Under the pieces are notes generated by a model. The model made no database searches. It was not told where the DNA came from and worked only from the letters and a program-made list of their open reading frames with translations. A DNA stretch of 10,734 nt from a virus. Each line of letters starts with the position of its first letter. Position 1 is the stretch's first letter. Position numbers and translations under genes: made by a program. Positions 3,543-4,350 of this stretch are shown here, one piece after another. The stretch is taken from the UHGV virus genome UHGV-1689382; one strand, 5' to 3'.

Positions 3543-4350
3543 GTTAGCTGATTACAGGCCTCAACTGGAGGTCGTGGAGCATCGCGTGGCAGATACCGAA
3601 GATGGTTTCATGCGCGTTGCTAACGAGATTACCGACAGTCTGCTGATGGCTGATTTAACCGTCCGGCAGTTGAAGGTGATGCTCGCTATCATGCGCAAGA
3701 CATACGGATTCAATAAGCCGATGGATCGACTCACAAACACGCAGATAGCAGCCATGACAGGTATTCATCACACTCATGTTTGCGCTGCCAAGCGCCAGCT
3801 TATTGAGCGTAAATTCCTCATTGCTGATGGCGTGAAAATCGGAGTGAACAAGGTGGTTTCTCAGTGGATTAGCCAGGACAGCTTAACATTAGCTAAAACA
3901 GCTAATAAAACATTAGCCAAGTCGGCTAATGGGTATAAGCCAAGTCAGCTAAACACAAAAGACAATATACAAAAGACAATAAATACAAATACCCCCTTAC
4001 CCCCTAACGGGGGCGGCGATGGGCAGGTTAAACCTGAACGTCGCAAGGCAGAACGAATCGACTATGAATCCTTCCTGAACGCCTACAACACCGAAGTCGG
4101 TGACAGACTGCCACACGCTGTTGCGGTCAACGAGAAACGCAAACGTCGCCTGAAGAAAATCATTCCGCAACTGAAAACGCCAAACGTGGACGGTTTCAGA
4201 GCGTATGTCAGGGCGTTTGTGCATCAGGCCAAGCCGTTTTACTTCGGAGACAACGACACGGGCTGGACGGCAGATTTTGATTACCTGCTGAGGGAAGATT
4301 CGTTAACGGGAGTACGGGAAGGGAAGTTTGCAGACAGGGGGATTGCATGA
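3529..4350 (+). CDS. Replication initiator, lambda O-like N-terminal origin-binding domain (P22 gp18-like organisation)
   Basis: The N-terminal block ([36 protein letters not shown]) is clearly homologous to the lambda O N-domain (ADLTKRQFKVLLAILRKTYGWNKPMDRITDSQL). An iteron-like repeat cluster lies in the middle of the gene. Its stop overlaps the helicase start (ATGA at 4347..4350). Confidence 0.85.
3890..3990. other. Putative replication origin: three ~24-bp iteron-like repeats plus AT-rich region inside the O-like gene
   Basis: Tandem units TTAGCTAAAACAGCTAATAAAACA (3890..3913), TTAGCCAAGTCGGCTAATGGGTAT (3914..3937), AAGCCAAGTCAGCTAAACACAAAA (3938..3961), each with two AGCYAA/GGCTAA half-sites 9 bp apart. 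Followed by an A/T-rich tract (3962..3990) with a duplicated ACAAAAGACAAT. Confidence 0.5.

Follow-up and report, generated by a model that had tools for sequence, protein, structure and literature searches.

A probable replication origin of the HK97 specificity type inside the initiator gene of a mosaic lambdoid early region

Introduction

That the replication origin of lambdoid phages lies inside gene O is textbook knowledge. The gp12 type of protein found in P22 is reported, going back to Wickner in 1984, to be a helicase that replaces the host DnaB.

At the level of DNA, lambdoid O proteins bind the iterons of the origin, the AT-rich tract serves as the unwinding element, and the minimal unwinding unit consists of two iterons together with the AT tract (PMC7466680). 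Binding of O to the origin has been demonstrated by EMSA and footprinting for the Stx phages 933W and P27 (PMC7466680). The iteron sequence is not the same throughout the group: gene 18 of P22 carries four repeats of about 20 bp that are unlike those of lambda (bioRxiv 10.1101/2020.10.05.325894).

Here we analyse a window of DNA, that is, the whole stretch of 10,734 nucleotides, in which a sequence-only reading had proposed a candidate origin of this kind inside an O-like gene. Our comparison supports that proposal through a feature-for-feature match to ori-lambda and through the rep_origin annotated at the homologous place in two P22 records (AF527608 and OQ031658). Several features of a lambdoid origin within O are present together, namely the position, four dyad iterons, their 20/24/23 phasing and an AT-rich tract of about 40 bp with strand asymmetry. 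Based on these features, the region is very probably an origin at which a lambdoid phage or prophage begins bidirectional (theta) replication, with a specificity of the HK97 type, and it is situated in the part of the initiator gene that encodes the linker of the protein.

Results

The entire window is a mosaic lambdoid early-right region, of which the best phage record covers no more than 53%. The O-type replication initiator gene (3529–4350, plus strand) is an ORF of 273 amino acids, in which a Pfam search places the family PF04492 Phage_rep_O at residues 19–113 with an E value of 5.8e-33. The protein is composed of an N-terminal DNA-binding domain that extends up to Trp113 (...NKVVSQW), a linker that is encoded by the origin DNA, and a C-domain of the P22 gp18 type that is 60% identical to its P22 counterpart. 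The gene of its partner, a replicative helicase of the DnaB family (4347–5723, plus strand), starts in an ATGA overlap with the stop codon of O; the Pfam search identifies DnaB_C (E 9.5e-78) and the DnaB N-domain (E 4e-13) in this product, which is 90% identical to P22 gp12 across 458 amino acids. Between the O gene and HK97 gene O (gp54), DNA identity amounts to 99.4%, and it is 98–99% with the counterparts in Nil2, Stx2 phage 1717, phage 2851 and several Salmonella phages. The ORF upstream of the O region encodes a CII homologue.

Between cII and O we observe a further ORF of 53 amino acids (3381–3542, plus strand), which overlaps the start of O by 14 nt and gave no Pfam family match. It is the counterpart of HK97 gp53 and, by position, of P22 orf48, a gene that P22 records label 'similar to phage HK022 gene 53'. 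An oop-like antisense unit is located at 3305–3388 on the minus strand. The 33-mer ACTGGATCAATCCACAGGAGTAATTATGACAAA, quoted as the conserved lambdoid pO / oop 5' region (PMC3349717), has an exact match at 3356–3388, and a terminator-like hairpin followed by a T-run is found on the minus strand at 3344–3312, where the cII-like gene ends. Rfam at its gathering threshold returned no match in the entire window, the oop-like unit included, and a promoter scan over 3200–4100 found none.

The origin itself is already known, since its sequence is identical to that of HK97, public since 2000, and its P22 counterpart is annotated. Specifically, the 181 bp at 3850–4030 are 100% identical to HK97 (AF069529 / NC_002167), and they are also present in 444 of 5426 complete E. 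coli genomes (about 8%), mostly on chromosomes, and in a few records of a plasmid collection that resemble phage or chromosome records. This distribution, the limited coverage of the window by any phage record and the mosaic joints at the origin (phage Gally has another N-domain with the same C-domain, P22 has other iterons with the same A-rich tract) would be compatible with an intact-looking but non-functional relic in a cryptic prophage, in which the identity to HK97 and P22 results from recent mosaic recombination and does not reflect current function. We regard this as very improbable, because neither O nor the helicase nor any origin element is interrupted and the 181 bp are those of a viable phage; moreover, the objection concerns the host element and not the identity of the sequence.

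The elements of the proposed origin were located by repeat finding, which reveals four in-register units at 3868–3885, 3888–3905, 3912–3929 and 3935–3952. They correspond to four iterons of 19 bp with start-to-start distances of 20, 24 and 23 bp, each of which is a dyad TTAGCY-N5-RGCTAA, that is, an inverted repeat of the form 6-N5-6. Iterons 2 (3888–3906, ATTAGCTAAAACAGCTAAT) and 3 (3912–3930, ATTAGCCAAGTCGGCTAAT) are perfect 7+7 palindromes, while iterons 1 (3868–3886, ATTAGCCAGGACAGCTTAA) and 4 (3935–3953, ATAAGCCAAGTCAGCTAAA) are imperfect dyads. The array begins 1 nt after the codon of Trp113, where the N- and C-domains of the initiator join.

The sequence-only reading had described three tandem units of about 24 bp, which we find again at 3888, 3912 and 3935, and had missed the fourth unit at 3868–3886. 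Its range for the origin, 3890–3990, is accordingly too narrow on both sides: iteron 1 falls outside it, and the conserved origin continues on the right to approximately 4013. The AGCYAA/RGCTAA hexamers that it had placed 9 bp apart are indeed present in each unit, and we prefer to read them as inverted repeats.

Allowing at most one mismatch, the pattern TTAGCYN5RGCTAA has four matches in the 10.7 kb, all of them within the array (3869–3952). In 1000 dinucleotide shuffles the mean number of matches was 0.095, and none of the shuffles contained two matches less than 100 bp apart; a looser de novo test produced a family of four members in 2 of 300 shuffles. The segment 3886–3932, folded as single-stranded DNA, reaches -12.2 kcal/mol, with a z of -7.2 relative to shuffles.

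We compared the array with those of nine other lambdoid O genes from a phage collection, including lambda and P22, with the window as the tenth. In all ten genes the array directly follows the conserved ...SEW/SQW end of the N-domain. All compared arrays are made of 6-N5-6 dyads and almost all of them end in spacings of 24 and 23 bp; the full 20/24/23 spacing is also present in Providencia PSTNGR2lys and Yersinia 21.09 (Yen21.09). The half-site divides the arrays into classes: TTAGCY in the window and HK97, Cronobacter phiES15 (five copies) and Yen21.09; TTAGCK in Erwinia 49 (Erw49) and Salmonella SEN34; TTTACC in P22 and PSTNGR2lys; TTACCY in Klebsiella RCIP0098 and E. coli 3W (five copies); and TCCCTC in lambda.

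The results show that the half-site class tracks the N-domain of the initiator, and not its C-domain or the helicase partner. The N-domain of the window is 59–63% identical to those of phiES15 and Yen21.09 (78% between these two), as opposed to 40–49% for the phages of other iteron classes. The N-domains of SEN34 and Erw49 share 84% identity and those of RCIP0098 and 3W 87%. On the other hand, the C-domains and the partner genes (a P loader or a DnaB helicase) show no such link with the iteron class: SEN34 and 3W possess a lambda-type C-domain (79–98% identical to lambda) together with a P gene; a different C-domain, accompanied by a DnaB-type helicase, is common to Erw49 and Yen21.09; and the window and P22 have a third in common. 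N-domain and iterons travel together, with the joint within the origin, which is the classical modular picture.

Within the N-domain, one segment varies with the class and takes the forms GIHHTH[VI]C, KH[LH]THC, (P/S)TKC, PHKC and VKRC, the first of which is common to the TTAGCY phages (window, phiES15 and Yen21.09). In the window this segment lies at 3757–3791 (O residues 77–88), and in the 10 phages it varies in step with the half-site class, in the pairs THxC with TTAGC, TKC with TTTACC, HKC with TTACCY and KRC with TCCCTC. Residues 77–88 are a candidate recognition helix. A sequence search of O against solved structures gave no match at E <= 1 and hence no structural handle on this helix.

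The comparison also shows joints and copy numbers of other kinds. The O gene of Escherichia phage Gally (OV696608, 188–1075) encodes an N-domain that is unrelated to Phage_rep_O and has His/Ala-rich repeats of its own (ATGATGCCGCACATGA-like), and a C-domain nearly identical to that of the window, so that the mosaic joint lies right at the right arm of the origin. In Erwinia 49 and SEN34, the first unit AATAACGGATTCTGCAAAAC, upstream of position 705, is closer to iteron 1 of P22 (GTTAACGGATTCGGTAAAAC) than to their own iterons 2–4, a possible trace of a recombination joint within the array. The number of iterons is variable as well: the five TTAGCY iterons of phiES15 (702–822) include one 36-bp spacing, and the five TTACCY iterons of RCIP0098 and 3W (653–770) are spaced at 29, 19, 24 and 23 bp, which recalls the six-iteron origins of Stx phages.

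The co-variation bears on whether the iterons serve mainly a purpose other than initiation, as an attenuator inside O, as the binding array of another regulator, or as a hairpin trigger of host defence. A terminator-like match is present on the minus strand at 3931–3911, where iteron 3 is followed by a T-run, and the defence protein OLD binds at the lambda iterons, with iteron hairpins in the melted origin proposed as the signal that activates it (bioRxiv 10.64898/2026.07.10.737580). However, the terminator-like match lies on the sense that is not transcribed and is a by-product of a palindrome followed by the TAAAAC spacer, while defence sensing would be secondary to origin function and not an alternative to it. 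Since the co-variation of the half-site with the N-domain points to O as the ligand, we consider a main role outside initiation highly improbable.

We attach next to no probability to the idea that the repeats are merely a low-complexity Ala/Lys/Thr-rich protein linker between the domains of O, with no role as DNA in cis: the translation agrees with the earlier statement that the array encodes such a linker, and units 2 and 3 do give a peptide repeat (LAKTANKT / LAKSANG), but the four iterons are read in three codon frames (offsets 0, 2, 2 and 1), which indicates a DNA signal and led us to reject the peptide-repeat explanation, each unit is a DNA palindrome, the 20/24/23 spacing is kept across classes with unrelated linker peptides, and binding of O to the lambda iterons, which occupy the same place, is established by experiment (PMC7466680).

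Reading the array as the iterons of an origin, we next consider the DNA to its right. The A-rich tract (3953–3991, 39 bp), the presumed DNA-unwinding element, is low in GC and conserved in all iteron classes examined. GC content falls to 20% at 3950–3989, and the 40 nt that follow iteron 4 (3953–3992) are 78% A+T, the top strand containing 65% A and 12% T. The duplicated ACAAAAGACAAT that had been noted in this A/T-rich segment is present in two copies, at 3955–3968 and 3969–3982, and is recovered by TRF as a 14-bp direct repeat ACAAAAGACAATAT/A. Ranked by nearest-neighbour energy, 3952–3991 comes among the three to four least stable 30–40-mers of the window and deviates from the mean by about 3 SD; as it does not stand alone as the least stable segment, the ranking by duplex stability counts as weak support. 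In every iteron class the tract opens with ACACAAAAGA, or with CCACAAAAGA in Erw49 and SEN34.

Beyond the tract, a G/C-rich right arm (3990–4013) can be delimited with low confidence. It comprises two copies of TACCCCCT (3990–4005) and a dyad CCCCC-TAAC-GGGGG (4000–4013), and it may correspond to the palindrome on the right of ori-lambda: the C5-TAAC-G5 dyad of the window, a short one, is centred at +54.5 nt past the last iteron and the lambda palindrome at +52.5. A dyad centred at +48 to +55 is found in nine of the ten O genes, with lambda placed by eye. Scanning detected a G/C dyad in six O genes, those of the window, P22, phiES15, Erw49, Yen21.09 and PSTNGR2lys. In SEN34 and 3W nothing more than a short AGAATTCT is seen, at +52.5, where the lambda-type palindrome has its centre; in lambda itself the scan gave nothing at this place, and the imperfect palindrome centred on the EcoRI site at about +52.5 was read by eye. 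Klebsiella RCIP0098 has just a CCCCCCGGG run near +60. Where the G/C dyad recurs, it takes the form C4-6, a loop of 1-4 and G4-6, and it persists where the C-domains are unrelated.

The hairpin energy of the C5/G5 dyad is no better than that of shuffles (single-strand fold, z of -0.09), and the dyad may be a by-product of Pro/Gly codons (TPLPPNGGG; peptide TP.P.GG). For both reasons our confidence in it as part of the origin is low. It is rather unlikely, in our view, that the dyad at 4000–4013 constitutes a distinct cis element of the right arm, alongside a readable recognition code between N-domain and half-site. Such an element could, for example, mark the boundary of unwinding or the entry of the helicase, and might act as an alternative to the lambda palindrome that moves with the mosaic exchange at the origin joint.

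Discussion

By analogy with the described lambdoid systems, dimers of the initiator O would bind the four iterons (3868–3953) through the N-terminal Phage_rep_O domain and assemble into an O-some around which the iterons are wrapped, and the stress exerted by the O-some would open the adjoining A-rich tract (3953–3991). The P22-type C-domain of O may then recruit the DnaB-family helicase of the phage itself (4347–5723), in which case no loader of host DnaB of the lambda P type would be needed, and host primase and Pol III would subsequently take over. We infer these steps of binding, unwinding and helicase recruitment, together with a dependence on rightward transcription, from the literature on lambda and P22.

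In the literature searched, we found no paper that explicitly describes or tests the HK97-type iteron or half-site, and this gap is one of annotation detail and not of biology. Neither a rep_origin nor any iteron is annotated in the HK97 GenBank record; it lists CDS only, that of O as 'similar to Bacteriophage P22 Gp18' and, next to it, gp55 as 'similar to DnaB'. To HK97-type records that are without such features, the four iterons, the A-rich tract and the TTAGCY-N5-RGCTAA class could be added. Beyond correct annotation, the finding of the origin matters little, and the table of iteron class against N-domain provides a ready set for swaps of initiator-origin specificity.

In phage L, gene 18 is a distant homologue of O that contains a presumed origin, with six 11-bp repeats TGTCCAACGGA, and precedes a helicase of the DnaB type (bioRxiv 10.1101/2020.10.05.325894); the repeats are unlike those of the window in length, number and sequence, and the proteins are very distant. 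The Stx phages 933W and P27, whose O is of the lambda type, resemble the window in having iterons and an AT-rich tract in the middle of O, and differ from it in that they carry six iterons of the lambda type, as opposed to four copies of another sequence.

Ori-lambda (NC_001416, 39034–39170) lies at the same place in O, right after the ...SEW/SQW end of the N-domain. Its iterons ITN1-4, annotated at 39034, 39054, 39078 and 39101, have the 20/24/23 spacing of the window and are likewise four 6-N5-6 dyads of 18–19 bp. Both origins have the TAAAAC spacer between iterons 2 and 3, and both have an A-rich tract with the same opening ACACAAAAGACA, the same A+T content (78%) and the same strand bias of 65% A and 12% T. 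A dyad centred approximately 53 nt past iteron 4 may be a further common trait. In concordance with the sequence-only reading, which had held the iteron sequence to differ from that of lambda, the half-site is TCCCTC / GAGGGA in lambda and TTAGCY / RGCTAA in the window, and the specificity common to lambda, 933W and P27 is thus absent here. The N-domains of the two O proteins are 43% identical while their C-domains are unrelated (18%), and the partner gene is the P loader in lambda as opposed to a DnaB-type helicase in the window. The right arm also differs, in that the EcoRI-centred 28-bp palindrome of lambda is absent from the window, which has the short C5/G5 dyad instead.

In P22, gene 18 contains four repeats with the same 20/24/23 spacing as the window, and the two sequences share an identical block of 57 bp (3951–4007) that covers the A-rich tract and the first C-run, the next-longest identical run with the P22 gene being 20 bp. 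The gene DNA is identical in about 55–57% of the alignment columns, with 53% in the part for the N-domain, 48% in the iteron array and 54% in the part coding for the C-domain. The 57-bp identity could stem partly from recent recombination at the mosaic joint, and not from selection. The half-site of P22, TTTACC-N5-GGTAAA, is unlike the TTAGCY of the window and the N-domain proteins are 40% identical, which together with the 48% identity of the arrays indicates that the two origin specificities are very probably different. The window shares with the P22 module (gene 18 and gene 12) the gp18-type C-domain and the DnaB-family helicase, but has neither the iteron specificity nor the N-domain of P22, and is instead of the HK97 specificity type. 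HK97 has the same gene order as the window, with cII, gp53, O and a DnaB-like P, and in substance its origin is the same.
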